This document shows, in pieces, positions 361 through 54,690 of a DNA stretch of 56,646 nucleotides. Made by a program: the position numbers and the translations under genes. Under the pieces are notes generated by a model that was given only the letters and a program-made list of their open reading frames with translations, was not told the origin of the DNA and made no database searches. This DNA is from a virus. Taxonomy: Duplodnaviria > Caudoviricetes. The stretch spans positions 1-56,646 of the IMG/VR virus record IMGVR_UViG_3300042934_000556; one strand, given 5' to 3'. Within the stretch, counting starts at the first letter, position 1. Each line of letters starts with the position of its first letter.

Positions 361-624
361 CTACGAGACGGACGCGAAGGGCTTCCAGTTCTCGGTCACT
401 CTGATGTGGAGGCCCGAAACGTTCTCGGTGATGATCTCCAGAATTGCGTCTTCGATGTCCGCATCCTGAAGTTCTTCTGGAAGTTCGTCGGACGTCCTGG
501 TCACCCGCGCTAGTAGGGCAAGGGAGTGGTGGCCCTGTTCCAGGTCATACTGGAGCCACTCATCCCAATGGGTGAAAGGGTTGTAAGGATTGTCGATGGT
601 GGTGAGCATGTGGTTCTCGCTCAT
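361..624 (-). CDS. Hypothetical acidic protein, translationally coupled to the RNA polymerase gene
   Basis: 87-aa ORF with ATGA overlap to the RNAP stop; motif LTTIDNPYNPF. Confidence 0.75.
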   Translation of the reverse strand: MSENHMLTTIDNPYNPFTHWDEWLQYDLEQGHHSLALLARVTRTSDELPEELQDADIEDAILEIITENVSGLHIRVTENWKPFASVS

Positions 625-17521: not shown

Positions 17522-17532
17522 CTATCCTCCTT

Positions 17533-32648: not shown

Positions 32649-35600
32649 TACGTCAGAGCTCCCTTCGTGGTTGACAGTTGATTCTTTGTCTGACGGTAGA
32701 TCTCCGCCGAAGACAGAGCCTTGGGCGAAGTGTTGTTTTGGATGTAGGTGATGGAACCGAGAGGATTGGTCTCGATCTCATCGGCTGCGGCTTGATTACT
32801 TGCGTAACCCGAAGCGACATACCTCGCCTTGGCATAGGCCGAGTCGATGGGAATATAGGAAGATCCGAACATCCCACTGATCCCAGCGACATCCCTACGG
32901 ACACTGGACAGGTCCAGAACCGGAGTGATTACTGGTTGCATGTCGTTCTCGTTGGTGATCAAGTCGGAGAAACCCGTGAGCGACTTCCTAAGAGATTCGA
33001 CGGCAGCCGTTCCAGTGCGGGCGGCAGACCGTTCGACGGAACCGGACATTTCGTCCAGGCCCTTGATGAGTCCCTGCGCGGAATATCCTCCCATCTCCAT
33101 GAATACACGAGATGGAGACTTGATCTTCAGCTTGGTCTTGATGGCCCTGATCATTGCCGCAGCAATGACATCCATCTGCTTCTCGATGAACTTCTGCTGA
33201 GACTTCAGACCGTTCAGAATACCCTTGGCCGAGTCGACACCTGCCTGGTAGAGAGCATCCGAACCCGTCTTACCAATATGAGCGCCTGCTGCGTCAAGAT
33301 CCTTACCGAGCTTGTTGACCTCGTTAACGCCCTGAATACCCTTGTCGAGAAGTTCGGTTACGAACGGCAGAGCACTGGGGCCCTGCTCCAGCAGATCCTT
33401 GTAGAGCTCGTCGTTGAGACCGAACCCACGCAGCTTCTGAAGCGCATTCGAGAACAGCTTGGTATCCTCGATCTGCTTCTTAAGCTCCTCCACGTAGCTC
33501 GAATATGTCGTCTCTGCTGTAGGGCTTGCAACGTCCGAGTACTTGTCGGTGATTTGCTTGCGGTAGTCGTCCCGAGTCTTGATGGCGGCTTGATATGCCT
33601 CGTCCGCCTTCTTGATCTTCTCAGTGAGGATGTCGTACTTGTCGGCGAGTTTACCTATAGCGGTCTTCTCGTCGTTGAGCGATTTGGTCAGGGCAGTATA
33701 GGCTTCTGCGGCCTTCTTGCGTTCCGATGAAGAAGCCTTAGAACTCTTTGAGAGATCTTTAAGCATCTTCTTCAGATCGTCAAATGCCTTGTAAACCTGA
33801 CCCTTGTTTCCGTCAAGCCCCTTTCTGAAACCATCGTTTACGTAGTTACCAAGCTTCTCGAATTCCTTGGAAGGAGAGTTGATTCCAAGGAAATCCTTAG
33901 CCGAATTGTACGCCGAGCTGGCAACTTCACGAGCTGCCGATGCTACAGCTCCTACACCGCTGGCAAGCCCCTTAACCATACCTTCGATGATTGCGCCAGC
34001 CAGATTTCGACCAGCTTGATTCATAGCGTCGGTGTTTTCGCGGATGGTTTTGGCCATACCATTTATGAAACTAATGATCATTTTGACGCCAGCGTCAATG
34101 ACCTTCGGAAGATTCCGCCCGATACCCTCGATGAACTTCACGACCACTCGAGTAGCCTGATCGATCACGTCACCGAGGTTGTTCGCAATGCCTCGGAGGA
34201 TACCCGTCAACAACTTGAGTCCGGCATCGACCATCTTCGGGACGTACTGTGCAAGCTTCTGAAGAAGCATCGTGAGCATACGCAGAAGTGCGTCCACGAT
34301 CTTCGGAGTAAGCCTGACGATCGCAGAGATGAGTGACTCCATCACTGTGACAATGGCCTTGGTGATGGAAGGACCGGCTGTGGCTATAACCTCAGCAAAG
34401 GCGATAAGTCCCAAGCCGATTTGCTTCATGACCTCCGGAATAAGACCTATGAGACCGGCCACGATCCCGATGATCATTGCTGTTGCAGCGCCACCAGCCG
34501 CAGCCAATGCCGTAAGTGCAGCAGCGAACAGAAGCACTCCTGCTCCAGCAGCCAACATGCCGACGCCCAGTAGAGCGACGCCCACGCCCAGACCGATGAT
34601 GGCTGGAACCACCGGGGCCAGAATAAGACCCGCCAGACCGATGACCACAAGGGCACCGGCCAGCATGACAAGACCCTTACCTATCTCCTCCCAGGTCATC
34701 CCGCCGAAAGCAACGAGCACGGGATGAAGAACCCACAGCGCCGCTGAAACGACGAGTAGAGCAGCCGCTCCGGGAAGCGCCCCGGTCATGAGGAACAGGG
34801 CCCCGGCGATCAAACCGAGGGTACCTGCCAACATGACCATGGACTTGCCGATTTCTTCCCAAGAGAACTCTGACATTTTGACGAGAACGCCGGTAACCTG
34901 CTGAAGAGCAAGCACTGTGATCAACATCGCAGCCGCACCGAGAGGAGCAGTCGGCGGAATGACGTACAAAGCTGCCGCCATCAAGCCGAGAGCACCTAGC
35001 ATAACTGTCAGACTCTTCCCGATCTCACCCCAAGACATCTTGGCCATGTCTTCGAGGGCGTCGGCGACCTGACCTAGTGACAGTGCCACGAGAAGAATAC
35101 CCGCGCCAGCAAGTGGTGCAGTAGGAGGGATGAGTTTGAGAGCTCCCGAGATGACGACGAGACCACCGGCCAAGGCCGCTAGACCCTTTCCGATTTCGCC
35201 CCAGGACATCTTAGAGAAGTCCTCTACGGCACTGGCGAGGATCTTGATCCCTGCCGCCAGCAATACGATTCCGGCCGCCTGAGCCAGTCCGCCCTTATTG
35301 GCCTTGGCGAACATGGTGAAGAGAGTTAGCGCTCCGAGAAGAGCACCGACTCCCACGAGACCCTTGGCAAGTTCGTTCCAGCCAAGGCTCGACAGGTCTT
35401 CTACCGCACTGGCCAGGATCTTGATCGCCCCGGCGAGAACGATCATAGCAAGACCTGTGGTTATGAGACCCTTGGGGTTCTTCATGAGTTGAGAAACCCC
35501 GACAAGGGCCCCGAGAAGACCAATTGTGCCGGTCAACCCCTTGGCCAACTCGTTCCAGTCCAGAGCAGCGAGGTCTTCGACGGCCTGGGCAAGAATAAGG

Positions 35601-38101
35601 ATTGCGACTGAGAGCAGGATCATCGAAGCGGCCACGAACGGCATCTTGGCGAAGCCCGCGAACCCCGACAGCTTCTCGAATATGAGAAGAGATCCGAGAA
35701 GTTGCGTGAACAGACCACCCATAGCGACAGAAGCTCGCGTCAAGCCGTCGGCATCGATCTTGGAGAGGATGTTCATGGCTGCTGCCAATATACCTACCGC
35801 AAGAGCAATCTGAAGAAGCGTCGCAGCTCGAAGGGTGTTTTGCATGGAACCGAGTACGCCGGTGAAGTTCTCGATGGCTTCACTAATACCGTCGAGCAAT
35901 CCTGGAGCTCCGCCACCGGCGAAGTTCTTGATGATCAGAACAAGACCTGCGAACAGACCCGTGTTGATCCCGGCGAGGACGTTCTCGAAATTGAGCCCGT
36001 CGAACATCGTGGAGACATCGATACCCAGCCCGCTGAAGAAGTCGGATATGCGACCACCCAGCTTCTGGAAGAAATTACCCACGTTCTCCATGACCGTGAG
36101 AGTCTTCTCCCAAGCCTTGGAGGCTACTTCACCCAACCGTCCGAGAGGCTCGAGTTTGGAGGATATACCCTCGACACTCTTCTCGACGCCCTTGGAATCG
36201 GTGTCCTTGAAGAGCGAACCGAGCCACTTGGCAAGCTCCTGTACGAGCTTGATCGGAATGGCGAGAACCACTCCGATCCCCTTGAAGAGATTCTTGAGCC
36301 CCTCTCCTTCTCGGATTCCGTTTCGGACAGCGACGAGAAAATCGCCGATCTTCGCAGTGAAGCTGAGGAACCCTCCGGAGCCTTGTGTCACCGCTCCGAA
36401 CAAGTCAAAGATTACACCAACAACACCCTTGATGATGTCGACAGCGATTCCAAATATCGCAAAGACACCGGCAAAGGTTCGCTTCAGTTTGTCTGCTGTT
36501 TCTCCCCCGACGATAAGTCGTTCGGTGAAGTCCCTGAAAGACTTCGTCATGTCGGCAAGCTGCTTGCCGGTGGTGGCCGGGAATATCTGGCGGAATGCAT
36601 CCTTGATCGGTTTGAGCACCGACATCAGGCCCTTGAAGACGTTCGTGACGCCTTCAACGAGTGCGTCTCTGCCGCCGAAAGATTTCCAATCCGACAACAT
36701 CTTGTTTCGGCCTTCGGCAGAACCTTGGATCATCTTGCCGATGGAATCGCTGATACCGGTGAACAGACCCTTGGCTTCCATGAAGTCGCCAAATATGATC
36801 TTCCAGGTCTGAGCCCACCCCGAAGTCATTTGCTCTTTGAACGTTCCGAAGAGCTGGGTGACGGTCTTTACTTCCGTAGCCGCTTTCTTGGCGGTTTCGG
36901 CCTGCTTCTGGATTGCCTTGATCTGCGACTTACTGAATCCTTGAGCCGCAAGATCAGCATCGGTGAGATCTCCAGTGAATTGCTGAAGAGTCGCCGTGAG
37001 AACTTCTGAATCCAACCATGACTCACCGTTCACAGCAGAAATCGAGTTTCGGAAAGACTTTCCGTTGACTTCGATATTCTTCATGGGACCGACGAGCTTG
37101 ACAGCACCATCCTTGAGTTTACCCATGGCTACGGCAGTGTCAGCCAAGGCTTGCTTAAATACGGCACCGCCCATACTGGCAGCTTCGACTGAGTTCCAGT
37201 CCTCGAGCGAAACAGTACCCGAGGAAATGGCCTGAGAAAGCTGATACATGGCGCCAGCGGCACGTTCAGAACTGGTACCTGACATCGCAGCAAGGTTAGC
37301 GATACCCTTGATGGCGCCAACCGACGTTTCGAGATCGACACCGGCAGCAGTGAACTGACCAATGTTCTTCGCCATTTCGGAGAAGTTGTAGATCGTCTGG
37401 TCGGAATAATGGTTCAGTTCATCCAAGGCCTTCGTGACGTCGTTCAGATTTGTACCTTGACGCTCTGTGTTCGCCAGGATGGTTTGGATCGAGTTGATGT
37501 TCGTCTCATACTCTCGAAAACCCTCCATGATGGGTCCGAAAGTGAATGAGTTGACGAGCCTCTGTCCTGCTTCGGCGGCTCGAGCACCAATGTTGTGAAG
37601 GGCTCCGGTGGCTACTTGTCCAAGAGCGGTGAATCGGCCAGCGAGACTCTGAACTCCACTCTCGAGATTCTTTAGGGCGTTAGAATTCTTGTTGGTTTCC
37701 TCGTTGCTCTTGTTCATCTTCGTGAGAAAGCCCTCAAGGGCCTTCTCACTGGACGAGACCTTCTGGCCGAACTGTTGAGCTGCAGTGGCCACCGTGCTGA
37801 CGCCACTGGAAAAACGCTCGAGAAATCCTCGTCCGGCTTCGACCTTCTGACCGAATTGCTGGGTTTCGGTGGCCACTTCCGAAACACCCTTTGTGAAGCG
37901 CCCAAGAGCATCTCGGTTGGTGACCATGTTCTGGTTGAAGCTCTGGCTGACCTGAGCGACCCCCGCGAGACCCTTCTGCGCCCCCTGGAGCTGGAGGCTC
38001 TTGTTGAGGACTTCGAGGGAGCGGATCGTCTGCTGAACGCCCTGTTGGAACTCGGCGTTTTGGAACTTCATCTGAACGACGCGTTCGTCGATGGTGCTCA
38101 T
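32648..38101 (-). CDS. Tape measure protein
   Basis: About 1817 aa, Ala/Gly-rich helical repeats (W.EIGK.L), two I.SPS motifs; ATGA overlap with the upstream gene. Confidence 0.92.
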   Translation of the reverse strand: MSTIDERVVQMKFQNAEFQQGVQQTIRSLEVLNKSLQLQGAQKGLAGVAQVSQSFNQNMVTNRDALGRFTKGVSEVATETQQFGQKVEAGRGFLERFSSGVSTVATAAQQFGQKVSSSEKALEGFLTKMNKSNEETNKNSNALKNLESGVQSLAGRFTALGQVATGALHNIGARAAEAGQRLVNSFTFGPIMEGFREYETNINSIQTILANTERQGTNLNDVTKALDELNHYSDQTIYNFSEMAKNIGQFTAAGVDLETSVGAIKGIANLAAMSGTSSERAAGAMYQLSQAISSGTVSLEDWNSVEAASMGGAVFKQALADTAVAMGKLKDGAVKLVGPMKNIEVNGKSFRNSISAVNGESWLDSEVLTATLQQFTGDLTDADLAAQGFSKSQIKAIQKQAETAKKAATEVKTVTQLFGTFKEQMTSGWAQTWKIIFGDFMEAKGLFTGISDSIGKMIQGSAEGRNKMLSDWKSFGGRDALVEGVTNVFKGLMSVLKPIKDAFRQIFPATTGKQLADMTKSFRDFTERLIVGGETADKLKRTFAGVFAIFGIAVDIIKGVVGVIFDLFGAVTQGSGGFLSFTAKIGDFLVAVRNGIREGEGLKNLFKGIGVVLAIPIKLVQELAKWLGSLFKDTDSKGVEKSVEGISSKLEPLGRLGEVASKAWEKTLTVMENVGNFFQKLGGRISDFFSGLGIDVSTMFDGLNFENVLAGINTGLFAGLVLIIKNFAGGGAPGLLDGISEAIENFTGVLGSMQNTLRAATLLQIALAVGILAAAMNILSKIDADGLTRASVAMGGLFTQLLGSLLIFEKLSGFAGFAKMPFVAASMILLSVAILILAQAVEDLAALDWNELAKGLTGTIGLLGALVGVSQLMKNPKGLITTGLAMIVLAGAIKILASAVEDLSSLGWNELAKGLVGVGALLGALTLFTMFAKANKGGLAQAAGIVLLAAGIKILASAVEDFSKMSWGEIGKGLAALAGGLVVISGALKLIPPTAPLAGAGILLVALSLGQVADALEDMAKMSWGEIGKSLTVMLGALGLMAAALYVIPPTAPLGAAAMLITVLALQQVTGVLVKMSEFSWEEIGKSMVMLAGTLGLIAGALFLMTGALPGAAALLVVSAALWVLHPVLVAFGGMTWEEIGKGLVMLAGALVVIGLAGLILAPVVPAIIGLGVGVALLGVGMLAAGAGVLLFAAALTALAAAGGAATAMIIGIVAGLIGLIPEVMKQIGLGLIAFAEVIATAGPSITKAIVTVMESLISAIVRLTPKIVDALLRMLTMLLQKLAQYVPKMVDAGLKLLTGILRGIANNLGDVIDQATRVVVKFIEGIGRNLPKVIDAGVKMIISFINGMAKTIRENTDAMNQAGRNLAGAIIEGMVKGLASGVGAVASAAREVASSAYNSAKDFLGINSPSKEFEKLGNYVNDGFRKGLDGNKGQVYKAFDDLKKMLKDLSKSSKASSSERKKAAEAYTALTKSLNDEKTAIGKLADKYDILTEKIKKADEAYQAAIKTRDDYRKQITDKYSDVASPTAETTYSSYVEELKKQIEDTKLFSNALQKLRGFGLNDELYKDLLEQGPSALPFVTELLDKGIQGVNEVNKLGKDLDAAGAHIGKTGSDALYQAGVDSAKGILNGLKSQQKFIEKQMDVIAAAMIRAIKTKLKIKSPSRVFMEMGGYSAQGLIKGLDEMSGSVERSAARTGTAAVESLRKSLTGFSDLITNENDMQPVITPVLDLSSVRRDVAGISGMFGSSYIPIDSAYAKARYVASGYASNQAAADEIETNPLGSITYIQNNTSPKALSSAEIYRQTKNQLSTTKGALT

Positions 38102-38475
38102 GCGGATGTCACCGCCTTCCATACTTGATCTGCGATGTGGTCAAATATCGGTTTCATCGCGGGGTTGATGTAGTCCCGACCTTGGACGTAACCACCGGTT
38201 CCGGTACCATAGCCGTACTGAAGCATGATGGCTACGGGAAATCCGTTTTCAACATCGTTGTTGGTCCATGTTATGGAAACGGACCCCCGGGAGTGTTCGA
38301 CTGTGTAATCCCAGGAGTCCGATGCCAAACCGGAGTCTTTAGGTACTGCTGAAGCCAAAGCGTTTACTCCCATTTTGGCTGCTGCGTCCAACGACTTATA
38401 GATGTCGCTGCTTCGCATCTTCCGAATGGAGTCTTCCGTTCGTAGGCCCGAACGTTTGACTACGAACGAAATCAC
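38098..38475 (-). CDS. HK97 gp10-like neck/tail component
   Basis: PKDSG...SW...LQYGYGT...YINPAM. Confidence 0.7.
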   Translation of the reverse strand: MISFVVKRSGLRTEDSIRKMRSSDIYKSLDAAAKMGVNALASAVPKDSGLASDSWDYTVEHSRGSVSITWTNNDVENGFPVAIMLQYGYGTGTGGYVQGRDYINPAMKPIFDHIADQVWKAVTSA

Positions 38476-43846: not shown

Positions 43847-45895
43847 TCAGGCAGACTTGCGCTTGAACGTCCAGGAGTCCTCCGCCGTGTTGGCGAAGTA
43901 GTAGCCGTCCAGGGCGACCGCGTAGACGGTCGTGGAGGCACCGGCCGCCAGAGCGGGCTGGGCACCCGGGGTCAGGACCGCGTCGTTGCTGTCACGGTAC
44001 TCCACGCCGGTGACCGTCGGGATGGTCACGACGCCGGTGGTCGAGTTGAAGGTCGGCTGAACCGGCTCGACGAGGTTGTCGGCAGACGCCACCGTCTTGA
44101 TGACCAGAGCCGACTTCGGTCGGATGAGGGCACCCGATGCACGGGTCTCCATCAGGTACTTGTACTGGTTGTAGTCGATGTCGAAGTCGTCGAACATCGT
44201 CAGCTCGCCACCACGGTCGGTGCCGACGTTGTAGTCCGCCAGGTTGACGATGATTCCGATCAGGTCGGAGATCTCCTTCATCGGCTCGACGGTGACGATC
44301 TTGTCGACGCCCAGCGCGTCCGCGACCTCGCCTCGGTTCTTGTAGAGCCGCTGACCGTTCAGGTCACGGGCCTGCAGGAACTTGTTGAGCTGGGGGATCG
44401 TGGTGAAGAACGTCGGGGTACCGGTCCCCTTGTAGTACTCCATGCCGTCCATGACGCCGTCGACGACGACCTCGTAGCCCAGGTCGTTTCCGGTGGCCGT
44501 CGGGTTGACGAACAGCGTGGTGACGAACAGCTCGTGGTCGTTGAGAATCGACCGGATGCCGGAGCCGCTGGAGGCGCCCATCGGGTCCTTGACCTTGTCC
44601 TCGTCGGCGATGTCTCGACCGTCACCGATGAGGACCGCACGTGCGAACTCCTCCTCGGTCATCAGACGCATCTCGCCCTTGAGGAAGGCGACCATGTCGA
44701 AGTCGGTGATGTCGAGCAGGTCGTCGCGGTCGAGCTTCTGCTTCTTGTAGATTGTGGTCGGGTCGGTGGTCCGCTTGGTGACGCCGAACCACTCCTCGCG
44801 CTTGTAGTTCCCCTTGATGTAGCCCTTGGCACGGGCCTCGTCCTGGGTCAGGTCGGCGGCGAAGGTCTTGATCCGGGAGAACGGGGTGTGTCGGGTGCTG
44901 TTGAGGACCGTGGCAACCCACTCGGTCCGACGCTTGTCGAGCTCGATGACGCCGGTCGCGGCCTTGGCGTCCGGGAACAGGATGTCGATGTTCTCGATGC
45001 CGTGCTGCAGGTTGTCCTTGGCGTACTGCTCGACAGCCGCCTTGAGAGAGCCGCGCTTCTCGGCGTCGGCGAAGATGCCCTTGAGGGCGTCGTGGGAGAG
45101 CTCGTGCTTGGCACTGCCCTTGTCGTCGGTGTTGGTCTGGTCGAAGACGTTGCGCGACATGTGGTTGCCGGCTCCTTCCTGGTGGGTGAGGTCGCCGCCA
45201 TCGGCGGACTTGTCGGAGTGCTCGGCGGAATTCGCCTTTGCTGCGTCCTGGAGTGCGACGCCGATCAGATAGTGGACGACGTTCTTCTGCTCTTCGTCGA
45301 AGGTCTCGTAGACGTCGTTGATGGTGAGATCGTCGTCGTCCTCGTCACCATCGGCGTGCTGAAGATCCTCGTCGTCCTCGTCACCGTCTTCCTCGTCTTC
45401 CTCGTCTTCCTCGTCGGAGTTTCCGGCGTGGTCGAGCTCGAGTCCCGTGTGGATGACGGCTTCGTCCTCAAGTGTCTCGAAGTCGCCATCGCCGTGGTTG
45501 ATGTTGACGAAGTCGATCTTGGCGCCGGGATTGGCCCCGGCCAGGACCAGGCTGACCTCGCGGATGATTCCGTGGAGGACTTCCTTGCCCTTCTCCACCA
45601 GGTTGTTGGCGTAGATGGAGAGATGCTTGATGTCACCGTGCTCGACGAGGCTTCGGGCGTTCTTCCCCTGCTCGGTGTCGTTGAAGAACGCGTAGGCGTA
45701 GACACCCTCGTCGCGGTGCTCGAGGACCGCGTGACCGAGGACGTTCTTCGCGTCGCTGTGTCCGTGCTGCCAGACCAGAGGAACCTGCTGGTGGTGCATC
45801 TTCTCGAAGGCACCGCGCATAATGGTCCGACCGTCGGAGCACCTGAGGCCAGCCTTGGTGGCCCAGCCGCCGAAGTCAGCTTCGATTACTGCCAT
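43847..45895 (-). CDS. Prohead protease - scaffold - major capsid fusion (HK97 fold) with C-terminal accessory domain
   Basis: N-terminal FGGWAT...PLVWQH...LSI...EVSLV..GANP protease; acidic linker; capsid domain. Confidence 0.88.
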   Translation of the reverse strand: MAVIEADFGGWATKAGLRCSDGRTIMRGAFEKMHHQQVPLVWQHGHSDAKNVLGHAVLEHRDEGVYAYAFFNDTEQGKNARSLVEHGDIKHLSIYANNLVEKGKEVLHGIIREVSLVLAGANPGAKIDFVNINHGDGDFETLEDEAVIHTGLELDHAGNSDEEDEEDEEDGDEDDEDLQHADGDEDDDDLTINDVYETFDEEQKNVVHYLIGVALQDAAKANSAEHSDKSADGGDLTHQEGAGNHMSRNVFDQTNTDDKGSAKHELSHDALKGIFADAEKRGSLKAAVEQYAKDNLQHGIENIDILFPDAKAATGVIELDKRRTEWVATVLNSTRHTPFSRIKTFAADLTQDEARAKGYIKGNYKREEWFGVTKRTTDPTTIYKKQKLDRDDLLDITDFDMVAFLKGEMRLMTEEEFARAVLIGDGRDIADEDKVKDPMGASSGSGIRSILNDHELFVTTLFVNPTATGNDLGYEVVVDGVMDGMEYYKGTGTPTFFTTIPQLNKFLQARDLNGQRLYKNRGEVADALGVDKIVTVEPMKEISDLIGIIVNLADYNVGTDRGGELTMFDDFDIDYNQYKYLMETRASGALIRPKSALVIKTVASADNLVEPVQPTFNSTTGVVTIPTVTGVEYRDSNDAVLTPGAQPALAAGASTTVYAVALDGYYFANTAEDSWTFKRKSA

Positions 45896-45912: not shown

Positions 45913-46407
45913 TTACTTCTTAGATGTTGTGTTCCGGGCTCCGACGGAGCCGTTCTTGCGCATCTTCTCGATCCGCTCCTGCATGGTCTTGATCTTCGCC
46001 TTTAGCGACTTGACCTCGTCTTCGAGAAGCTTGTCCTTGTTCTTCTCGTAGTACTCCTTGGACGCCTTTGCAGCCTTGGATTTCTGAGCTGCAGTCTGCT
46101 TAGTCGATGACTTCGCTGCGGACGAAGCCTTCTTCTCTGGCGTCTTTTTGGTTTCAGCGCCACTTCGGGCTTTGGCCTGCTCGGTCAATACCGTCAGAGC
46201 CTTACGAAGCTTTTCCAACCGACTTTTGAGGGCTGTCACTTCGGCCTCGAGCTTCTTGCGCCTTTCGGCTTGACGCTGGGCTCTGGTCTTGGTCGCTGGC
46301 TTGAGTGTGACGCCCTTCTTCGTACGACCCTTCAACTGACGGGTCTTCAAGTAGTAGGCGCGTCGTTTCGCCGGGTCGTACTCGTGGACGATCTCGTCAG
46401 CCATCAT
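45913..46407 (-). CDS. Basic coiled-coil hypothetical protein
   Basis: EIVHEYDPAKRRAYY...; Lys-rich; lies between portal and capsid genes. Confidence 0.7.
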   Translation of the reverse strand: MMADEIVHEYDPAKRRAYYLKTRQLKGRTKKGVTLKPATKTRAQRQAERRKKLEAEVTALKSRLEKLRKALTVLTEQAKARSGAETKKTPEKKASSAAKSSTKQTAAQKSKAAKASKEYYEKNKDKLLEDEVKSLKAKIKTMQERIEKMRKNGSVGARNTTSKK

Positions 46408-47753
46408 TCGGCCCCAAGGCTCTGGAGCATGGAGTCGATCATCGCATTGGCTTCAGCGATTCCGCTCTGAACCAGATCTTCCCCTTCGTCTTCGGAGTCC
46501 TCCTCTTCCAAGGCAGAGCCCGAATCGACCGGAGATGTTGTTGGATCTCCGGCCTGAGGCATGTTGCTGTTGACAAGCTGGTCGGCCTTCGGGTCCTTGG
46601 AGGGTTTGAAGCCGATGCCCTGTCGGATCTCGTTGGCGGAGAGGACTTCGTTTCGAGTGAACTTGTCGGCGATCTCAGCGATCTGCTCCATCGGAACGAG
46701 CTTGAACGGGTCGCGGAAGTACATGATCGACTGCTTCTGAGACCGGGCCGTTTTGGTCAGGAAGGTCTTCTTCATGGCCTCCGAGATCGCCTGAACGACG
46801 GGCTCGATGGTCCGGCTGAAGTAGTTCAGCATGGCCTTCTCGTCAGCCGTGCCGTTCATGACCTCCTCCGTCAGACCAAGCTGAGCGTAGAGGATGCTCG
46901 TGAGGTACTCGATCTGCTTGAGGAGATTGTTCTCGACCGGCCGGTTGAGCTGCGTGATTTTCTCGGTACCATCGGTATAGGCGATACCGTACTGACTCCC
47001 CTTGAGCTGGAACTCAATATCCTTACGCCTTTGTTCGGCTTGCTGCCGTCTGGCTTCGGATTTGATCACGTAAGGAAGCTGAATGATCATGTCGAGCTTA
47101 CCGGAACTCGACTGCTCGTCCACCGAGTCCAACATGTTGAGCTTGTGAATGAGTCGTTTAAGTGTCGAGTTCGGTTCGTTCATCACCGAATATAGGGGGT
47201 TCTCGACGATCGCGGTGTACTTCTTTTCGACCGTGACTTGCTTCCTCTGCCCAACCCGGTCGTCGTAAAGACTTACTGTTACGTGTCGGGGATGCCATGC
47301 CACGATCTCGCCGACTCGAAGACTCCGGATGGTATAACTCGCCGACTCGGACGGATTAATATCTGTCTCTACCGGAACGATCGCCGCCGTACCATGTTCG
47401 AACAGCGTCATTGCTATGTCCTGACGGAACTGTCGGGCGCCCTGGTCGATGTTGGGTTCAACCTGGAGACAATCCTGGAGTCCGCTGTCCATGTCTTCGA
47501 GGTAACGTCCCTCCTCGTCGGTTCGGACGTGTCGAATATCGACACCAGCGACATCGATACCGAGCCTGGTGTAGATTGACGAGATGATGGATCGTTCGCT
47601 GGAATATGACGACCGACTACGACTCGAAGGAGAGTAGTAGTACCCTGTACTCTCGTGTCCGCCGAAGGAGCGGACGCCGGTGTAGTTGTCATCGAGAAAG
47701 ACGTTCCAACTGTGCTTGAGAGTCCTCTTTACTCGCGAAAGCAAACCTGCCAT
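46404..47753 (-). CDS. Portal protein
   Basis: 449 aa; HK97-like LQVEPN and LSANEIR..IG..P motifs. Confidence 0.88.
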   Translation of the reverse strand: MAGLLSRVKRTLKHSWNVFLDDNYTGVRSFGGHESTGYYYSPSSRSRSSYSSERSIISSIYTRLGIDVAGVDIRHVRTDEEGRYLEDMDSGLQDCLQVEPNIDQGARQFRQDIAMTLFEHGTAAIVPVETDINPSESASYTIRSLRVGEIVAWHPRHVTVSLYDDRVGQRKQVTVEKKYTAIVENPLYSVMNEPNSTLKRLIHKLNMLDSVDEQSSSGKLDMIIQLPYVIKSEARRQQAEQRRKDIEFQLKGSQYGIAYTDGTEKITQLNRPVENNLLKQIEYLTSILYAQLGLTEEVMNGTADEKAMLNYFSRTIEPVVQAISEAMKKTFLTKTARSQKQSIMYFRDPFKLVPMEQIAEIADKFTRNEVLSANEIRQGIGFKPSKDPKADQLVNSNMPQAGDPTTSPVDSGSALEEEDSEDEGEDLVQSGIAEANAMIDSMLQSLGAE

Positions 47754-47789: not shown

Positions 47790-48446
47790 CTAACCGATCC
47801 CCATGTTCTTGAGCATCTCCTGGGCAGACTTTTGACCGTTCGGATCGGTAGCCTTCTTGTAGGCCTTCTTACCAGCGTCGGCAATGGTCTTGTCGATACC
47901 GGCCTTGTGGGCCCAGAGAGCGCCTCCGACCACGATTGCCGTTGCCGCCGAGGCATACTGCGAATTACCTCTGAGGATATGGCTCGTGCCTCGAATACCC
48001 TTGCGGGTGCTGTTTGCAACGTTCTTGCGTTTACGCTCGCCCTTGGCCTTGTCTGCGTGCTTGGACATGTCCTGATTGGACAGATGAGCGTCGAAGGCCT
48101 TCTTGTACGCCGGATTCTTACTCTTGCCCTCGACCTTGGCTTTGATCAGCTTTCGTCGAGTACCAGCGCCTTCGCCGTAGAACATCTTGGCTCGGGCGAA
48201 CTCCTTGGCATCCTTGGCGGCGTCTCGGTTGATCGATCTGGACACTCCGTTGGGGCGGGACTTACGGATGCCCCATTTCATACCCTTGACACCGTAGTGA
48301 ACAAGTTCGCCGTTTACATAAGAGTGGAAGAACTCATCGTCCAAGATAACAGCTCCCGGAGCATTGCGAATCTCTTCGAGTCTCCGCGTCATACTCTCCT
48401 CATCGGGGATTTGAGAGGGCAATATGAAACCGGGGGACCTGTACAT
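47790..48446 (-). CDS. HYGVKGMKWG-motif protein, basic
   Basis: ELVHYGVKGMKWGIRK. Confidence 0.8.
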   Translation of the reverse strand: MYRSPGFILPSQIPDEESMTRRLEEIRNAPGAVILDDEFFHSYVNGELVHYGVKGMKWGIRKSRPNGVSRSINRDAAKDAKEFARAKMFYGEGAGTRRKLIKAKVEGKSKNPAYKKAFDAHLSNQDMSKHADKAKGERKRKNVANSTRKGIRGTSHILRGNSQYASAATAIVVGGALWAHKAGIDKTIADAGKKAYKKATDPNGQKSAQEMLKNMGIG

Positions 48447-48447
48447 G

Positions 48448-49281
48448 TTACTTCACCTCCTTAAAAGGTGTTGGGTCGACACCCATCTCTTTGTGTAGAG
48501 TTTTACCCCATTCCTGAACGTACCTTGGCGGGTTGGTCCCCCAGTGATATGCACTGAAGAGTTCAGCTTCCAACTCGCCTCTCTCCATGGTGCTCATCGC
48601 GTAATCGGATACGTCCCAGATTTGGCGTCCCTCGCGAGCGGCTACTTTCTGAGCAACCTTCAGAGCCTTGTTTCGAGCTTCGATGTTCCCACCCGAGACC
48701 TTTTGCCTACCACGAGAATCGGTAGTCAATTGCTGGGTGGAATGAAATATGGCGTGAGAATTCTCATGAGTGATCAGACCCTTCACGTTACCGGTACCCG
48801 CGTGGTTCCAATTCCCATCGGCATCTTGGAGCTCACGGCGCATGTCTCGAGCGCCGACGAAGATTGTACCTTCGTTAGCCGAACCGAGTTCCTGAGTGTT
48901 CTCTACGAAAGCGAGGAAACTCTTCTCGAGTTCAGGCGTGTATATCGGGTGACTTTTGTCGAAGACCTTTACGTCCTTGACTGTGTAACCGTACCGATCA
49001 TGCATGAGACGAGCAACTTCGAGAGCACCCGAGGCAGTGCTACTGTGAACTCGAGAATCAATTCTAGGCGGTGTGAAAGGCTGCCTAGAGGTCGTCTCCT
49101 CGTCCTTACGAACACCCCACTTCATACCCTTGACACCATAGTGAACAAGTTCACTGTCGAAGTCGCTGAATTCGAATAGAGTAAAACCCGTAGTTTCCTC
49201 GGATCGCCTTCGAAGATCGTCTTTGAGTTCTTCCTGGGAAGAATATGCCGACGGAAGGACGAATCCAGGCGTTCTGGACAT
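48448..49281 (-). CDS. HYG-motif protein with zincin-like (HExxH) domain
   Basis: ELVHYGVKGMKWGVRK; THENSH...SDYA...ELEAELF. Confidence 0.8.
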   Translation of the reverse strand: MSRTPGFVLPSAYSSQEELKDDLRRRSEETTGFTLFEFSDFDSELVHYGVKGMKWGVRKDEETTSRQPFTPPRIDSRVHSSTASGALEVARLMHDRYGYTVKDVKVFDKSHPIYTPELEKSFLAFVENTQELGSANEGTIFVGARDMRRELQDADGNWNHAGTGNVKGLITHENSHAIFHSTQQLTTDSRGRQKVSGGNIEARNKALKVAQKVAAREGRQIWDVSDYAMSTMERGELEAELFSAYHWGTNPPRYVQEWGKTLHKEMGVDPTPFKEVK

Positions 49282-49284
49282 CGG

Positions 49285-49989
49285 TCACTTCCTTTCCTTG
49301 AATGGGGTCGGGTCGATCCCCATTTCTGCGTGAAGAGTCTGCCCCCATACCGTTACGAAAGAAGGCGGTTTCGGATGCCAGTGGTACTGTGAGAAGAGTT
49401 CGGCTTCGATCTCCTCATGGCCGTGCGAGGAAGCTGCGTAACCAGACAGCTTCTCCAATAGTCTGTGTTCTGATATACCCTTACGCTGTGCCTCGTCGAC
49501 CATGGCTTGGAGAGCCTTCATTCGGGCTTCTTTCTCCCCACCAACTACCTTTCCATTCTCGTCGTACTTCTCCCGTGAATGGAATATCGCGTGTGCAGAT
49601 TCGTGGGTGATGAGCCCTATCGGGTTCCCCAAACCTTTCCCTACCCAGCCCGTCTTCTCGGAGGCCTTCATCTCTCGAGTGGGATCACGTATGGCGAGGT
49701 AAATATCACCTTCGAGTTTTTGCTTACCATTGTTCGCAACGTAACCGAGGGTGCCTCTCGAGTATTCTTCGTGACCAGGAGCGATGGCTTTGATCTCTCG
49801 AACCTTGTAGCCGTATCGCTCTTGGATCAGAGCTGCGACCTCACGAGCGGCTTGCTGGGAAACCACATGGACTCTAGAGTCCATCTTGGGGCTTTCGCCA
49901 ACGGACTGAAAACGTCCAGCGACATCATCATCCTTACGGACGCCCCACCGCATACCCTTGACGCCATAGTGGACGAGTTCGTCGGTCAT
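49285..49989 (-). CDS. HYG-motif protein with zincin-like (HExxH) domain
   Basis: ELVHYGVKGMRWGVRK; THESAH...SGYA...EIEAELF. Confidence 0.8.
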   Translation of the reverse strand: MTDELVHYGVKGMRWGVRKDDDVAGRFQSVGESPKMDSRVHVVSQQAAREVAALIQERYGYKVREIKAIAPGHEEYSRGTLGYVANNGKQKLEGDIYLAIRDPTREMKASEKTGWVGKGLGNPIGLITHESAHAIFHSREKYDENGKVVGGEKEARMKALQAMVDEAQRKGISEHRLLEKLSGYAASSHGHEEIEAELFSQYHWHPKPPSFVTVWGQTLHAEMGIDPTPFKERK

Positions 49990-50960
49990 GACCCCAGCTT
50001 GTGGTCGCTCTTCTTGTGGGCGGCGAGAGCGAGGCTAGAGAGGCTTACTGTTCCGTAGGCCTTCAGAATATCCGAGGTCTTGGCCTTGCCGGTGGCCAGA
50101 CGCTTTTCCTGATCTCGAAGCTTCTTGGCTCTACGAGCTGCCTCGTTCTTGAGGCCACCGCTCCGGACGAGGTTGGCGGCCGTGGAGTTCATGGCGGTTG
50201 CGAACTTCTCCATCTTCGTAGCCGTGCCGTCTGCCACTCTTTCTAGACGGGCTGCGCGGAGATTCAAGTCGCCGGTTCGAGCCTTGCGGACGCCCCACTT
50301 CATACCCTTGACGCCGTAGTGCTTGAGTTCGGAATGCTTCGCTTCATCGAAGTTGTATTCCATGTTCGTCAGACCTCCCCACATTCCGGCGCCAGATCCT
50401 GTCACTTCTCCGGTCACCTTGAAGCCGAGCTTCTCATAGATATGCCTAGCGTCGGGAGAGATCCCGGGTACTTCGAGGGTCATCTTCTTGAAGCCCTCCT
50501 GCTTACCAAAATCCCGTCCAGCCTGCATGACGGCTGTAGCATAACCTTTACCACGAGCGGACTTGTCGATCCCAAGCCAATTGAGATAAAGCTCGTCCTT
50601 GTTTCGCTTCGTGACGTAGGCATCTCCGACCTTTTTACCGGAGCCATCCAAGATGTCGAGACTGGCGTTCTTCGAGTACCACTCGCGATACTTCTTACTC
50701 ATCCTACCCGTGAGTTCAGCGACCTTGGTGGGCGGGACTTTCTGGAGTGTGATGGTCTCTCCCGAAGCCGTCTTACGACTTACCGTGTCCGGTCCGAGAG
50801 ATTTGAGTGGTTCTCGCGTTGGCTTGTCGGACTTCCGAACACCCCACTTCATACCCTTAACACCGTAGTGCTTGAGTCCCTCGCTCATTTCGGCAATGTT
50901 GCTCTCGATGAGATCGAGGAGGTCTCCGTACTCCGCTTCGAGATTGAAATCACTACTCAT
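49986..50960 (-). CDS. Double HYG-motif protein with GNAT acetyltransferase domain
   Basis: LKHYGVKGMKWG twice; ARGKGYAT and ARHIYEKLGF GNAT motifs. Confidence 0.8.
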   Translation of the reverse strand: MSSDFNLEAEYGDLLDLIESNIAEMSEGLKHYGVKGMKWGVRKSDKPTREPLKSLGPDTVSRKTASGETITLQKVPPTKVAELTGRMSKKYREWYSKNASLDILDGSGKKVGDAYVTKRNKDELYLNWLGIDKSARGKGYATAVMQAGRDFGKQEGFKKMTLEVPGISPDARHIYEKLGFKVTGEVTGSGAGMWGGLTNMEYNFDEAKHSELKHYGVKGMKWGVRKARTGDLNLRAARLERVADGTATKMEKFATAMNSTAANLVRSGGLKNEAARRAKKLRDQEKRLATGKAKTSDILKAYGTVSLSSLALAAHKKSDHKLGS

Positions 50961-50989: not shown

Positions 50990-52030
50990 TTAGTACTTAC
51001 GATTCTCCAACTCGATGAGGCTGGCTTCGGCGAAGTTGATGTCGTCCTTGGTGAGAGGTTCATTCGACTTCTTACCGACAAGCTCACGAGCGAAGATGAC
51101 GAGAGGAGTCTCTCCGATGACGCCAGCGTCCATCTCATCGACAATTGCTCCATAACCCTTCTTACGGAGTGCGTCGAACATTCCCATGGCGTGGCCGTCA
51201 CTCCAACTACCACCACTGAGCTCTTGATACTTGGCCAAGACTCGTTCATCCGTGTACCAAGCCTCGAACTCTTTCTTACCGCCTATCAGAGATTCTTTCA
51301 GTGCTTCGAGTGTGGTCGACAGCTTTGGAACTCGAATGTCTTGCTCGGCTTGAAAGGTTACATGGTGAAGTGGTCCGAGCAGCTCTTGGCGGAACTGAGA
51401 TACATATCGATGGTAGTCTTCCAGGCTGTGAGTGGAATACGTCGCATCTCGAAACTCGGTTTCCGCTTTTTGTGAGAGTCGATGAAACTCGTGACCAGCC
51501 GGAAGGGTGAACTCGTCCCGCTCCCAAGAACTGTCTTTGATGTAGTCGTTACTACCCCAAGTTTTGATCTTGGAATGCATGACGTGCTTATGGAACGTCT
51601 CTGGACTGATCGACTTTCCGCGAAGTTCCTCAATGGACTTTACGGTCTTGGCTTCAGCAATCGCATTTGCTGCGATCAGACCAGCAATGGCACCGGTGAA
51701 TATCAGAGCTTTCTTGTGTCTGGCAACAAAGCTCTTCTTGGTTGGCTTCTCGTCTGAACCTTCGAGCTTGGCCTGAGACTTCTTCTCGTTGGCCTCCAGG
51801 TTTTTCTTGATCTGTTTGGCGTTGGGTTCCTTCTTGGGCTTGTGCGCCTTCTTCCACTTCTTGTCAGCGGAAGTCATGCGGTACTTGCCGGTCTCCTCGT
51901 CCTTTCGGACACCCCACTTCATACCCTTGACGCCGTAGTGGGTAAGAAACCTCTCGCTTCGGAGAATATCGTCAATGGCCGAGGCACCATGCTGAAGTAT
52001 CCGAGCAATCTCGTCTTCCGAACTACTCAT
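50990..52030 (-). CDS. HYG-motif protein with unknown C-terminal domain
   Basis: FLTHYGVKGMKWGVRK; hydrophobic segment; FHRLS...KGYGAIVD. Confidence 0.8.
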   Translation of the reverse strand: MSSSEDEIARILQHGASAIDDILRSERFLTHYGVKGMKWGVRKDEETGKYRMTSADKKWKKAHKPKKEPNAKQIKKNLEANEKKSQAKLEGSDEKPTKKSFVARHKKALIFTGAIAGLIAANAIAEAKTVKSIEELRGKSISPETFHKHVMHSKIKTWGSNDYIKDSSWERDEFTLPAGHEFHRLSQKAETEFRDATYSTHSLEDYHRYVSQFRQELLGPLHHVTFQAEQDIRVPKLSTTLEALKESLIGGKKEFEAWYTDERVLAKYQELSGGSWSDGHAMGMFDALRKKGYGAIVDEMDAGVIGETPLVIFARELVGKKSNEPLTKDDINFAEASLIELENRKY

Positions 52031-52042
52031 TTCACCTCCTTC

Positions 52043-53788
52043 CTACTCGAACTGTTCCTTGTTGAGCTTGTAAGCGATGAAAGCATCCATCATCGCAGCA
52101 ACGTTGTCGATCTTGGCTTCCTGACGCTTCTTAAGAAGCTTTCGGTTGCCGTTCGTGTCCTCCATGGTAATGGCGTTACCCATGGCAAAGGTCATCAGTG
52201 CCTGATCAAATATGAGCAAACGTTCGCCACTCAGAGCCTTGAGTTCCCCAAGCGGGACCGACTCTGTCTTCGCCCCCTGAATCACTTTCTCGATGCCGTA
52301 AGGCCCGTTCTCCGCTTCCCAGCGGGCTACAAACTCCTTTGCGTTGTAGGGGTCGAAACCAAGTGCGCGCACATCATAGTTACAGTCCTGGATATGGACG
52401 TCCAGGTCGTCGTAGACCTCCATCATGTCGAGGATCGTTCCCTCAAGAACGTGGAGGCTGCCCTCGTCTATGAACTCGTTGTACTTTTGGCGCATAGCTC
52501 CATGGAGCTTGAGCAAGGTCAACGAGGAAATGTAGCTGCGGGTCTTTACGCCAAATCCTCCGCCTCGCAGAGGGAAGATGAATGTGAACGCACAGAAGTC
52601 GTCACCCTGAGAGAGGTCCGCTCCAAGAGCGCAAGGCATTCCCCAGAAGGTTCGAGGATGGTGAGGCAGAGTCTCTTCGTAAGTGAAGAAGTACGTATAC
52701 CCCTCCATCGGAATCCCGAAACGCTTTGCCAGAATATCGTTCCGGGAAGCAGGAGCCTTCTCGGCTCGTTCAACGTCGAGTTGGTAGGTGTCATAGGTGA
52801 CGGTCTTCCCGAGATTGGGATTGGCCTTCAACCACATCGCCGGGTTTCCGACCTCTTCCAACTCATCCAATCGGTAATGCCAGATCGAAACGTGAGGTGC
52901 TTGATACTCGCCCTTGAGAATATCGGCAAGCTCGAGCTTGATGGTGTCACCGCTGCCGTTTCGAACGGTTCCCTCGGAGCTGACGGCTACAATGAGATAG
53001 TCGTCCAGCTTGGAAGAACCCTGTTCGATGGCGCCAATGACGTCTTCCCGGAGATCTCCCGAAAGCCACTCGTCGACGGTCGCTACCTTGGTTCGGAGGC
53101 CTTGGAGCTTGTTGATGGTCATTGGCCGGACCTCGAGCATCGATCCCGTGAGGAAGTTCTCGATACCCTTCTTGGTGGCAGCCAGTTTGACTCGGTTGGC
53201 CTTGGAACCAGTCGTGTTCTGTAGTGACCCTTCGGTCATGAACGAAAATAGCGGACCGCGACTTCTGGTGATTGCGGTCCTGATCGGCTGCATGACCTCT
53301 TCGGCTTGCTTCATGGTCGGAGCCGTGGTGATCTGGTGAGTCGTCGAGGTGTCCACGTTCAGAAAATAGCTCTGAAGACACGACTCATAGAGCGACTTGG
53401 CGGCGCCTCGTGCAACGATGAGGTACTGCTTGGTTGTCAACCGCTTCTTGATAACCTTGTCGACGTACCTACCCCCATGGTTGTCGGGATCGGGTTCGTA
53501 GACGCTCCGGTTGATGAAGTAGTACCAGCAGAATATCTGTTCGGCCCAGAGCTTGAACGAGTCGAGCAGATGAAGGTCACTCCCGTCGGTGAGAGTTAGT
53601 TCCTTCTCACAGTAGAGGACGAAGCCCTCGACCGGAGCAGGATCGTAGTAGATGTTCGGGTTGGCGATGAGTGCGTCGATGCGGTTCATCTCCAAGGAGA
53701 CTTCTCGGTTGACCGGAATATCACCGCGCATCACCGCCTCACGGAACTTGCCGTAGTAGTACGGTGTTGCCGTGTTCGACAGAGCCAT
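52043..53788 (-). CDS. terL: Terminase large subunit
   Basis: VARGAAKS (Walker A), VDE (Walker B), KANPNLG, GADLSQGDD, KIDNVAA. Confidence 0.93.
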   Translation of the reverse strand: MALSNTATPYYYGKFREAVMRGDIPVNREVSLEMNRIDALIANPNIYYDPAPVEGFVLYCEKELTLTDGSDLHLLDSFKLWAEQIFCWYYFINRSVYEPDPDNHGGRYVDKVIKKRLTTKQYLIVARGAAKSLYESCLQSYFLNVDTSTTHQITTAPTMKQAEEVMQPIRTAITRSRGPLFSFMTEGSLQNTTGSKANRVKLAATKKGIENFLTGSMLEVRPMTINKLQGLRTKVATVDEWLSGDLREDVIGAIEQGSSKLDDYLIVAVSSEGTVRNGSGDTIKLELADILKGEYQAPHVSIWHYRLDELEEVGNPAMWLKANPNLGKTVTYDTYQLDVERAEKAPASRNDILAKRFGIPMEGYTYFFTYEETLPHHPRTFWGMPCALGADLSQGDDFCAFTFIFPLRGGGFGVKTRSYISSLTLLKLHGAMRQKYNEFIDEGSLHVLEGTILDMMEVYDDLDVHIQDCNYDVRALGFDPYNAKEFVARWEAENGPYGIEKVIQGAKTESVPLGELKALSGERLLIFDQALMTFAMGNAITMEDTNGNRKLLKKRQEAKIDNVAAMMDAFIAYKLNKEQFE

Positions 53789-53803: not shown

Positions 53804-54352
53804 CTACGGTCTCCGTTCGCGCTCTCGTGCGATGTTCCTAGCAATGGCTCCGGCTCCTGCGGCTACGGCAGCAGAAGTGCCGCCAGTCGCGTAAGCAGCT
53901 CCTGCCGAAAGGGCCGTACCGAGACCCGTCTTGACGGCCTTTCCGGTTTCCGTCTCCAGGAATTTCCGAACCTTCTCGACGGTCTCGCCGTAAGCGAGAA
54001 CCTTCTTGACCTGATCGTGGCCCTTGTCGACAGATGACTTCTGGGGAGACCCAGGCGGGGGTGTCACAATATTCCGGTACTGGCGTTCCAGGTTCATGCG
54101 GGTCAGAAGACCTTGGAGTTCCTGGTTGCTGAGCGAATGTGTCCCGCCTTCGGCAATCTTGCGCTGGGCGTCCATGGCAGCCTTGACGTCGGCCGAGACC
54201 TTGGGTTTCGAAGCCGATCGAGACTCGGATGATCCGCCGGAACCGCCCGCTCGAGCGAGTTCTGCATCGGAGCGACGTACGCCCCACTTCATGCCCTTGA
54301 CACCGTGATGACTCAGGCTGCCGGAATAACCTCCGGGTCGGGATCGATCCAC
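53804..54352 (-). CDS. HYG-motif protein
   Basis: SLSHHGVKGMKWGVRR; LSNQEL...RMNLERQY; probable GTG start at 54352 after GAGGAGG. Confidence 0.75.
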   Translation of the reverse strand: MDRSRPGGYSGSLSHHGVKGMKWGVRRSDAELARAGGSGGSSESRSASKPKVSADVKAAMDAQRKIAEGGTHSLSNQELQGLLTRMNLERQYRNIVTPPPGSPQKSSVDKGHDQVKKVLAYGETVEKVRKFLETETGKAVKTGLGTALSAGAAYATGGTSAAVAAGAGAIARNIARERERRP

Positions 54353-54690
54353 TGGTCCTCCTCTCGCAGGACGTTGAGGCGCCACTCAAGTTCGGCGGCG
54401 GTCTTGTTCATGGCATCGAGGGCGAACGAGGTCCCTGGAGGATCGAAGAGAAGTCGTACCTTCAAGTACAGATACGACTTCACCATGTTCATCCGTGAGT
54501 CGCCCCCGATGAAGCTTTCCCACGTGGCCGTAGAGTCCTCGATCATGAACCCTTCGGTCGGACCTATCCCGACTTGGGTCAGGACTGAGATCATGCTGTT
54601 AAGATGAAGCATGATGTCGAGGTCGAACGAGGTGTCAGCCTCACTGAGACCGATGAGCTTCTTCGTTGACGTAAGGATGCTCTGCGCCAC
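54313..54690 (-). CDS. Head-tail connector/adaptor protein
   Basis: SIL...KKLIG...FD.DI...YLKVRLLFDPP...ELEWR. Confidence 0.7.
   Translation of the reverse strand: MAQSILTSTKKLIGLSEADTSFDLDIMLHLNSMISVLTQVGIGPTEGFMIEDSTATWESFIGGDSRMNMVKSYLYLKVRLLFDPPGTSFALDAMNKTAAELEWRLNVLREEDQWIDPDPEVIPAA

Follow-up and report, generated by a model that had tools for sequence, protein, structure and literature searches.

The window analysed here is the whole of IMG/VR virus record IMGVR_UViG_3300042934_000556, a complete 56.6-kb record (56,646 nucleotides) from a cluster-BI (Rimavirus-like) Streptomyces siphophage. Its head module, which lies on the minus strand like all other window genes named below, encodes in order a tagged 193-aa protein, the large terminase (52043-53788), five tagged proteins, the portal (46404-47753), a 164-aa coiled-coil protein and a 682-aa fusion (43847-45895) in which protease, spacer and capsid domains are joined in one chain. 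The tag of these proteins is a short N-terminal motif (HYG motif, Pfam family DUF7211). Here we describe a short site, [LIVM]-x-His, that recurs in the spacer of the fusion, stands in front of the tags and may serve in both places as the cleavage site of the fused protease.

The protease domain (residues 1-134, 45494-45895) was recognized with Pfam Peptidase_S78, phrog_3270 and an AlphaFold2 (AF2) model. PF04586 (Peptidase_S78) matched residues 24-128 with 26.9 bits (cut-off 21, E = 6.1e-6), and by this curated profile threshold the fusion is a member of Peptidase S78; phrog_3270 (head maturation protease) matched it with an E value of 4e-260. The alignment used for modelling (A2) comprises 122 sequences, none of which departs from His44, Ser93 or His134. 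We take His44 and Ser93 to be the catalytic residues, their 49-residue spacing being equal to that of His65 and Ser114 in HK97. The AF2 model of the fusion, built on this alignment, has a mean predicted local distance difference test score (pLDDT) of 82.9 and contains a confident protease domain at residues 1-135, with pLDDT of 96-98 over residues 11-130. It is followed by an acidic, scaffold-like spacer (residues 135-298, 45002-45493), delimited by the model and its repeated sites, in which disordered acidic stretches (144-187 and 223-263) and helices (192-222 and 268-295) are predicted.

The remainder of the chain (residues 299-682, 43847-45001) is predicted by AF2 and Foldseek to be a major capsid domain of the HK97 fold with an extra C-terminal beta domain. 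The best Foldseek match of this domain was the gene transfer agent capsid 6tb9 (E = 1.3e-11), the others including HK97 (1ohg/2ft1), 8eb4 and actinophage capsids, and all top matches had the HK97 fold. Because the score of PF05065 (Phage_capsid) was 20.9 bits and thus under its cut-off of 24.2, the assignment as a capsid protein rests on the fold. A phmmer search of PDB sequences returned no matches, and a search of the PDB with the A2 profile returned a weak capsid match (9sz9, E = 0.0088) and two rows at chance level; these searches thus gave no structure of a relative from which the mature N-terminus could be read as the first modelled residue.

To follow the sites, the fusion was compared with 120 close sequences and with a lineage set of 151 proteins, namely the 150 best representatives of clusters at 50% identity (44-57% identical to the window fusion) and the window fusion itself. 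At the end of the protease domain, I-N-His134↓GD (45494-45502; arrows mark proposed cuts) is a candidate self-release site with His in 146 of the 151 representatives and Ile, Leu, Met, Phe or Val at P3. Within the spacer lie L-D-His156↓AG (ELDH, 45428-45436), L-Q-His180↓AD (DLQH, 45356-45364), the variant A-E-His226↓SD with Ala at P3 (SAEH, 45218-45226), L-T-His238↓QE (DLTH, 45182-45190) and L-S-His268↓DA (ELSH, 45092-45100). The junction site L-Q-His298↓GI (NLQH, 45002-45010) predicts Gly299 as the N-terminus of the mature capsid protein. Among the close sequences, His is present in 86 at position 156 (P3 Leu in 81 and Ile in 34), in 115 at position 180 (and in 116 of the 151 representatives), in 97 at position 226 (P3 Ala in 91), in 118 at position 238 (P3 Leu in 89 and Ile in 28) and in all 120 at position 298 (and in 141 of the 151 representatives). 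At position 268, 130 representatives have His and 124 have Leu at P3. In the AF2 model the sites are located in low-confidence or inter-helix segments.

Histidine in the fusion is concentrated ahead of the capsid domain: 20 of its 22 His fall within residues 1-298, and neither of the two in the capsid domain follows [LIVM]-x. In spacer residues 136-298, L-x-His occurs five times against an expectation of 0.72, a count that 5000 shuffles of the same composition reached with a frequency of 0.0002, and [LIVM]-x-His occurs seven times against an expectation of 1.5, a count that none of 5000 shuffles reached. The fusion alone stands out in this respect (14 occurrences versus 4.7 expected), and in 22 other window ORFs (open reading frames) [LIVM]-x-His is at the level expected from composition.

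The same enrichment is found among the homologues of the fusion, whose lineage includes phages of Streptomyces, Arthrobacter, Gordonia, Rhodococcus, Lactococcus and Faecalibacterium and many gut and soil prophages. After five sequences with a truncated protease or capsid part had been dropped, 146 of the 151 were usable. In their spacers 748 of 878 His (85%) follow [LIVM]-x, where shuffles give 160, with a mean of 5.1 sites per spacer, and in their capsid domains 130 of 545 His (24%) do so, which is background. His is the sole residue among the 20 that is enriched after [LIVM]-x (ratio 4.66, with Tyr next at 1.64). The P1' residues of the spacer sites are mostly Ala (237), Ser (174), Asp (82), Gly (63) and Asn (52), and positions P4 to P6 are frequently acidic. 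Of the 142 sequences that could be scored (4 were missed), 41 have the last site 7 residues and 51 have it 11 residues ahead of LFPD, a conserved motif of the capsid N-arm, and these two distances correspond to two forms of the junction, L-x-His↓G-I-x-N-I and L-x-His↓A-x-x-Y-G-I-x-N-I. As judged by this sequence comparison, the whole phage lineage obeys the [LIVM]-x-His pattern. Known prohead-protease sites are recognizable by the same set of features: P3 is hydrophobic, P1 fixed and P1' small, several copies stand redundantly in a propeptide that is acidic and disordered, and the last copy is found where the mature domain begins. Cleavage after [LIVM]-x-His in the spacer and at the capsid junction, which we infer, thus has strong comparative support.

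DUF7211 (PF23847) matches the window seven times in six ORFs, with 43-54 bits against a cut-off of 27. All seven tags have Leu at P3 and His at P1, and they open with ELVH-YG (three tags), GLKH-YG, ELKH-YG, FLTH-YG and SLSH-HG, the last being HHG and not HYG. Five of the six ORFs lie between portal and terminase. A 218-aa protein (47790-48446) carries its tag (48252-48320, ELVH-YG) behind a 50-aa leader, and it is followed by two proteins with an HExxH motif, one of 277 aa (48448-49281, tag 49096-49164, ELVH-YG) and one of 234 aa (49285-49989, tag 49927-49986) whose leader is just M-T-D-E-L-V-His. These two are paralogues and appear to be extras in comparison with the phages Rima and TaidaOne, judged from gene sizes and annotations; the nearest ESM Atlas clusters of the 234-aa protein are metalloprotease and Pro-Pro-endopeptidase-like (score 0.96), which we regard as a lead only. 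A double-tagged protein of 324 aa (49986-50960, tags 50826-50882 and 50277-50333) consists of a tag with a GNAT acetyltransferase (Acetyltransf_1), a second tag and a 117-aa module, and phrog_17496 matches its residues 210-324. The 346-aa protein (50990-52030, tag 51893-51958, FLTH-YG) has in its leader an extra site of the spacer type, I-L-Q-His14↓GA (51989-52000), and Rima gp9 retains both sites. The sixth ORF, upstream of the large terminase, encodes the 193-aa protein (53804-54385, tag 54266-54319, SLSH-HG). A Pfam search at E <= 5 with five of the tagged proteins found nothing besides DUF7211. AF2 prediction of the tag alone gave a mean pLDDT of 61 and no secondary structure, and a peptide with no predicted fold fits a linear motif.

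A scan for the tag pattern in one genome per prokaryote species yielded 70 loci from Bacillota, Actinomycetota, Bacteroidota metagenome-assembled genomes and others, in which a hidden Markov model (HMM) made from the seven window tags found 188 tags, 156 of them unique. P3 of the unique tags is Leu in 140, Ile in 11, Val in 3, Met in 1 and Phe in 1, so that [LIVM] stands at P3 in 155 and His at P1 likewise in 155, numbers that are partly built in because the seed pattern needed His-[YH]-G and the tags behind the HMM all had Leu and His. The residue after this His is His in 74, Tyr in 70, Phe in 9 and Trp in 3, followed by G-[VI]-K-G-M-K-W-G-V-R-[RK], and P3 and P1 match the Gly and Trp of the tag in conservation. 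Leaders in these genomes are mostly short, with 2-14 residues from the first in-frame Met to P4 in 102 of 131, and contain 18% Asp plus Glu and 9% Lys plus Arg. In the long leaders 9 of 20 His are in [LIVM]-x context, numbers too small for a judgement.

Two further N-terminal families carry the site, and both were gathered by whole-protein similarity with no use of the motif. One is an RNA-polymerase-like (RNAP-like) protein of 927 aa (621-3404) with a DFDGD motif and a C-terminal helix-turn-helix (HTH), which is matched with E = 0 by phrog_4291, labelled 'RNA-dependent RNA polymerase'. Its C-terminal end is HTH/sigma-region-4-like, and in sequence it looks like a single-chain two-barrel RNA polymerase. 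It opens with the variant tag A-L-V-His↓YGIRRKSGRYPWG (ALVH-YGIRR, 3327-3377), and its N-terminus has no Pfam DUF7211 match at E <= 0.01. An acidic leader followed by x-x-His-[YF]-G...S-G-R-Y-P-W opens 112 of 120 homologues, with Leu, Ile, Val or Met at P3 in 108; of the eight misses, four have a start called at the Met in P2, two differ elsewhere in the tag and two are truncated. The four that are annotated from the Met at P2 (P0382, P0393, P0400 and P0403) resemble Rima gp7 (L074, 2624-3130), whose annotated start is the Met of G-M-K-W-G inside the tag. Since the acidic-Leu residues upstream are conserved, we suggest that these starts have been called too late. The gene of the RNAP-like protein sits at the opposite genome end from the head genes, and records of the SEA-PHAGES style name its homologues merely 'helix-turn-helix DNA-binding domain protein'.

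The other family is that of the basic coiled-coil head protein (164 aa, 45913-46407, phrog_12541), which opens with M-M-A-D-E-I-V-His↓EYDP. A regular expression found [LIV]-x-His followed within five residues by Y-D/N/E in 78 of 81 homologues, and the other three have I-V-H, L-S-H or V-I-H when inspected by eye. The His is at position 6-21, usually 7, and P1' is Ala in 32, Glu in 19 and Asp in 11 of the 78. Because the sequence past the His differs among the DUF7211, RNAP-like and coiled-coil families, the site itself is their shared element. The portal N-terminus, T-L-K-His↓SWNVF (residues 11-14, in a conserved R-L-K-x-A-W-N-A-F helix), was considered as a further site and dropped. Among the 50 portal homologues listed the position is often His and also Asn, Arg, Ser, Lys, Gln or Asp (seen by eye and uncounted), and T-L-K-His is probably not an obligatory site.

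A first-pass annotation of the window had pointed to repeated L-x-H sites in the capsid scaffold that match the residues before every HYG motif. The peptides it quoted from the spacer, the tags and the RNAP-like protein are all present, including ILQH↓GA in 50990-52030 and EIVH↓EY in 45913-46407. The motif as worded requires amendment, as SAEH has Ala at P3 and SLSH precedes HHG, and I-N-His134↓GD had been missed.

The tag and the fusion were found together repeatedly. Within the DNA fetched, 45 of the 70 tag-selected loci carry the same fusion, and their spacers contain 233 His, 197 of which are in [LIVM]-x context. Of the 25 fusion-less loci, 16 are contigs shorter than 10 kb, L044 represents a phage's RNAP end, and L005, L052 and L068 have no head genes in the DNA fetched. 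Another locus, L040 in a Blautia prophage, has an ORF (13732-17685, plus strand) in which the first ~70 residues of the protease continue directly into a tape-measure-like repeat protein of 1318 aa that has just one His; it looks like a dead prophage from which the head-to-tail genes have been deleted and in which the tagged gene, terminase and portal remain. No counter-example of a tag beside a different head protease was seen among the tag-selected loci examined. In a tblastn search of 50,697 phage records, 229 records were hit by the tag and 244 by the fusion, with tag/fusion counts by genus of 54/54 in Streptomyces, 55/55 in Gordonia and 91/95 in Arthrobacter. By these sequence matches, the phage lineages that have the tag are those that have the fusion. 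Nine tagged genes are present in ReqiPepy6.

Closely related phages have different sets of whole tagged modules and leaders of different length. The interval between terminase and portal holds five genes in the window and three in Rima and TaidaOne. Rima gp10 is the 117-aa tagged protein alone, and the window and TaidaOne have a tag-GNAT module inserted in frame before it, giving two tags. The leader of Rima gp11 has 7 aa as compared with 50 aa in its window orthologue (the 218-aa protein), the remainder being nearly identical. The tie of the tags to virions is indirect and comes from record labels. Orf7 of Lactococcus phage 1706 (L072, 2501-3889), labelled 'structural protein' in GenBank, has two tag-like motifs and two more L-x-His sites, and phrog_35934, labelled 'virion structural protein', matches the tag. 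The motifs of 1706 orf7 are I-L-Q-His-R-G and I-L-L-His-K-G, and with Arg or Lys after the His they indicate that an aromatic residue there is not universal.

Taken together, we lean mildly towards a model in which the fused S78 protease cuts after [LIVM]-x-His and the tags are signals for capsid loading and trimming. After assembly of the procapsid, the S78 domain would cut after [LIVM]-x-His, first at its own C-terminal end (His134) and then at five to six spacer sites, with His298 last, which would leave Gly299 as the capsid N-terminus. The spacer, acting as scaffold, would be reduced to small peptides that exit the head. The same site, 5-50 residues from the N-terminus, would open three kinds of N-terminal signal, namely DUF7211 on six neighbours (the GNAT acetyltransferase, the two HExxH proteins and three further proteins), the variant tag of the RNAP-like protein and the start of the coiled-coil protein. 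Proteins bearing such a signal would be taken into the procapsid and would lose their short, mostly acidic leader there, and a basic, Gly/Trp-rich N-terminus would be left on the cargo, which would probably be delivered to the host with the DNA. A broader proposal is more speculative, and we consider it possible but somewhat doubtful: DUF7211 may be a portable, lineage-wide head-loading tag, so that any protein opening with acidic-[LIVM]-x-His and the basic Gly/Trp-rich peptide would enter the procapsid of these fusion-bearing siphophages, would be trimmed there by a prohead protease of novel P1-His specificity and would be injected with the DNA. The two-barrel RNA polymerase might then start phage transcription, the changing enzymes (acetyltransferase, Zn-protease-like) might act as counter-defence or takeover factors, and the retained peptide might serve a further purpose during ejection or inside the host.

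Several observations weigh against the trimming of tagged cargo by the fused protease. At P1', 156 of 156 unique tags have an aromatic residue or His, none of which is frequent after the spacer His, and the tags may therefore be cleaved poorly or not at all. In contrast to the T4 targeting sequence, the tag has its conserved part behind the proposed cut. The constancy of P3 and P1 among the tags is partly built in, as noted above. Because tag and fusion are always found in one lineage, their co-occurrence may reflect common descent and not functional coupling, and no natural case with a changed P1, from which co-variation could be read, was found. The inconsistent portal position implies that some [LIVM]-x-His sites are without meaning. 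A complex prediction for protease residues 1-134 and a 40-aa tag, made without controls, returned no answer (score 0.00) and weighs neither way. The earlier proposal of a cut after L-x-H is strongly favoured by comparison for the spacer and the junction and is less secure for the tags, whose P1' differs. The proposal that scaffold and tagged proteins share one site is upheld by the same P3 and P1 in three unrelated N-terminal families of the same lineages. The leaders, described earlier as mostly acidic, are so in seven of eight cases in the window; that of 53804-54385 is Arg-rich, with an uncertain start codon. A P1 His had also been called unusual, and to our knowledge it is unusual for a protease of this kind, none having been found in the literature searched either.

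The contrast at P1' can also be explained if the spacer sites are cleaved and the tags merely dock. A tag would then be a pseudo-substrate that is cut slowly or never and holds the cargo to the protease domain or to another procapsid surface, and the leader would be retained. Docking would account for His, Tyr, Phe or Trp at P1' of the tags where the spacer has mostly Ala, Ser, Asp, Gly or Asn, and for the strong conservation of the portion after the His; moreover, in T4 a changed P1 stops processing and targeting still works (PMC9026906; this and the two other articles cited below are cited from excerpts). We regard docking as a serious rival and nevertheless think it rather unlikely, given that leaders of orthologues are free in length and sequence (7 versus 50 aa), as expected of a part that is discarded, that the long leader of the 346-aa protein has an extra spacer-type site with Gly at P1' that is kept in Rima, and that P1' in the coiled-coil family is mostly small or acidic. 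A more radical separation, in which the spacer sites are cleaved and the Leu-x-His of DUF7211 is unrelated and similar by coincidence, would assign the tag to DNA binding, to interaction with portal or terminase or to an action on membranes after ejection. The tag is basic and rich in Gly and Trp, its genes flank terminase and portal, and Pfam states no function for DUF7211, all of which would suit such roles. It is hard to reconcile with the same P3/P1 pair ahead of three different sequences (DUF7211, the RNAP tag and the Y-D-P protein), with P3 and P1 being conserved like the Gly and Trp of the tag and with the restriction of the tag to the lineage whose spacer bears the sites, and we rate it as decidedly improbable.

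The remaining explanations concern the spacer. Its [LIVM]-x-His sequences could be repeats for metal binding or scaffold contacts in place of protease sites, as His beside Asp/Glu-rich sequence could bind metal. This would leave the conserved hydrophobic P3 and small P1', the invariant site at the end of the protease and the fixed distance to the capsid N-arm unaccounted for, and a site with a hydrophobic P3, a defined P1 and a small P1' is what the logos of known prohead proteases show; we see very little room for it. That the pattern is an artefact of chance or composition, to which nothing but the small numbers in a single protein would point, is refuted by the shuffles of the window spacer (0.0002), by the lineage counts (748 against 160) and by an enrichment that is specific to His, and it has virtually no probability left.

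The proposed cleavage and trimming system can be compared with several known ones. In HK97, gp4 and the delta domain of gp5 offer a likeness in components, with a protease of the S78 family, the HK97 capsid fold and an N-terminal scaffold-like segment removed by the protease (a removal that is predicted here). Unlike in HK97, protease, scaffold and capsid form one chain in the window phage. The final cut of HK97 is after Lys103, and we know of no L-x-His rule described for it and of no cargo system. Encapsulin cargo-loading peptides are likewise short, linear and rich in Gly, and they bring unrelated enzymes into a shell of the HK97 fold; they are usually C-terminal, have no link to a protease site and act in non-viral compartments. 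With respect to Pfam, the seven tags of the window are above the curated cut-off of DUF7211 and the RNAP variant is outside the model.

The organization of the proposed system is like that of T4, in which gp21 cuts after L/I-x-Glu and removes capsid-targeting leaders (PMC9026906). As with gp21 and the targeting sequences of IPI-III and Alt, a site of hydrophobic residue, any residue and defined P1 would be common to scaffold, capsid and unrelated cargo (PMC9026906), and N-terminal leaders would direct a varied cargo whose set differs among relatives (PMC9026906, PMC3012670). The sharing of one such candidate site between the spacer and the N-termini of three unrelated families is found in the sequences of the window lineage. 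The targeting information is, by contrast, not in the part to be removed: the leaders are short, variable and exchangeable, and the conserved residues (~13 in the tag) come after the His and would remain on the cargo. The window phage further differs from T4 in having His and not Glu at P1, in having an S78-type protease fused to the capsid where T4 has a separate gp21, and in that its lineage consists of siphoviruses of Gram-positive hosts with genomes of ~55 kb.

Among giant phages, gp245 of SPN3US cuts after A-x-Glu with Ser at P1' and has several sites per propeptide (PMC10052503). The redundant sites per propeptide, small P1' and preference at P4 of such proteases (SPN3US gp245, phiKZ gp175) resemble the spacer sites described here, and the head proteins that are processed in giant phages include a virion RNA polymerase (PMC10052503, PMC9026906). 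Unlike the window system, these phages have the motif A-x-Glu, long propeptides and no retained tag of the DUF7211 kind. The giant-phage motif is also given as (S/A/G)-x-Glu. In the literature searched there was no account of an L-x-His rule and no mention of DUF7211; the papers found on capsid and protease fusions contained no proteomics, and nothing relevant was found on mass spectrometry of cluster BI phages. We propose that the features that set the system apart from T4 and the giant phages are the P1 His, the capsid-fused protease, the tag retained on the cargo and the occurrence in ordinary-sized siphophages of Gram-positive hosts.

If the model is true, a simple sequence rule would predict mature capsid N-termini and packaged proteins in a large and widespread lineage, DUF7211 would be given a function, and a His-specific member would join the prohead proteases. 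Injected RNA polymerases and effectors are known mainly from N4-like, crAss-like and giant phages, and the model would suggest that ordinary-sized siphoviruses of Gram-positive hosts also inject their own RNA polymerase together with variable effector enzymes. A further use of the tag could be the packaging of foreign proteins in phage heads, for which the T4 targeting sequence has already served (PMC3012670).

Some minor observations on the rest of the window may be added. A regular-expression match to the tag at 17948-17962 lies in an unused frame that ends in a stop, and it was taken as chance. The 1337-aa ORF at 13508-17521 combines a region of DUF5906 (primase/helicase-type) with a weak match to family-B DNA polymerase. 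The tape-measure protein (1824 aa, 32648-38122) has just 4 His, and His is very scarce in most tail proteins too, in contrast to the capsid spacer with its His content of 6%.

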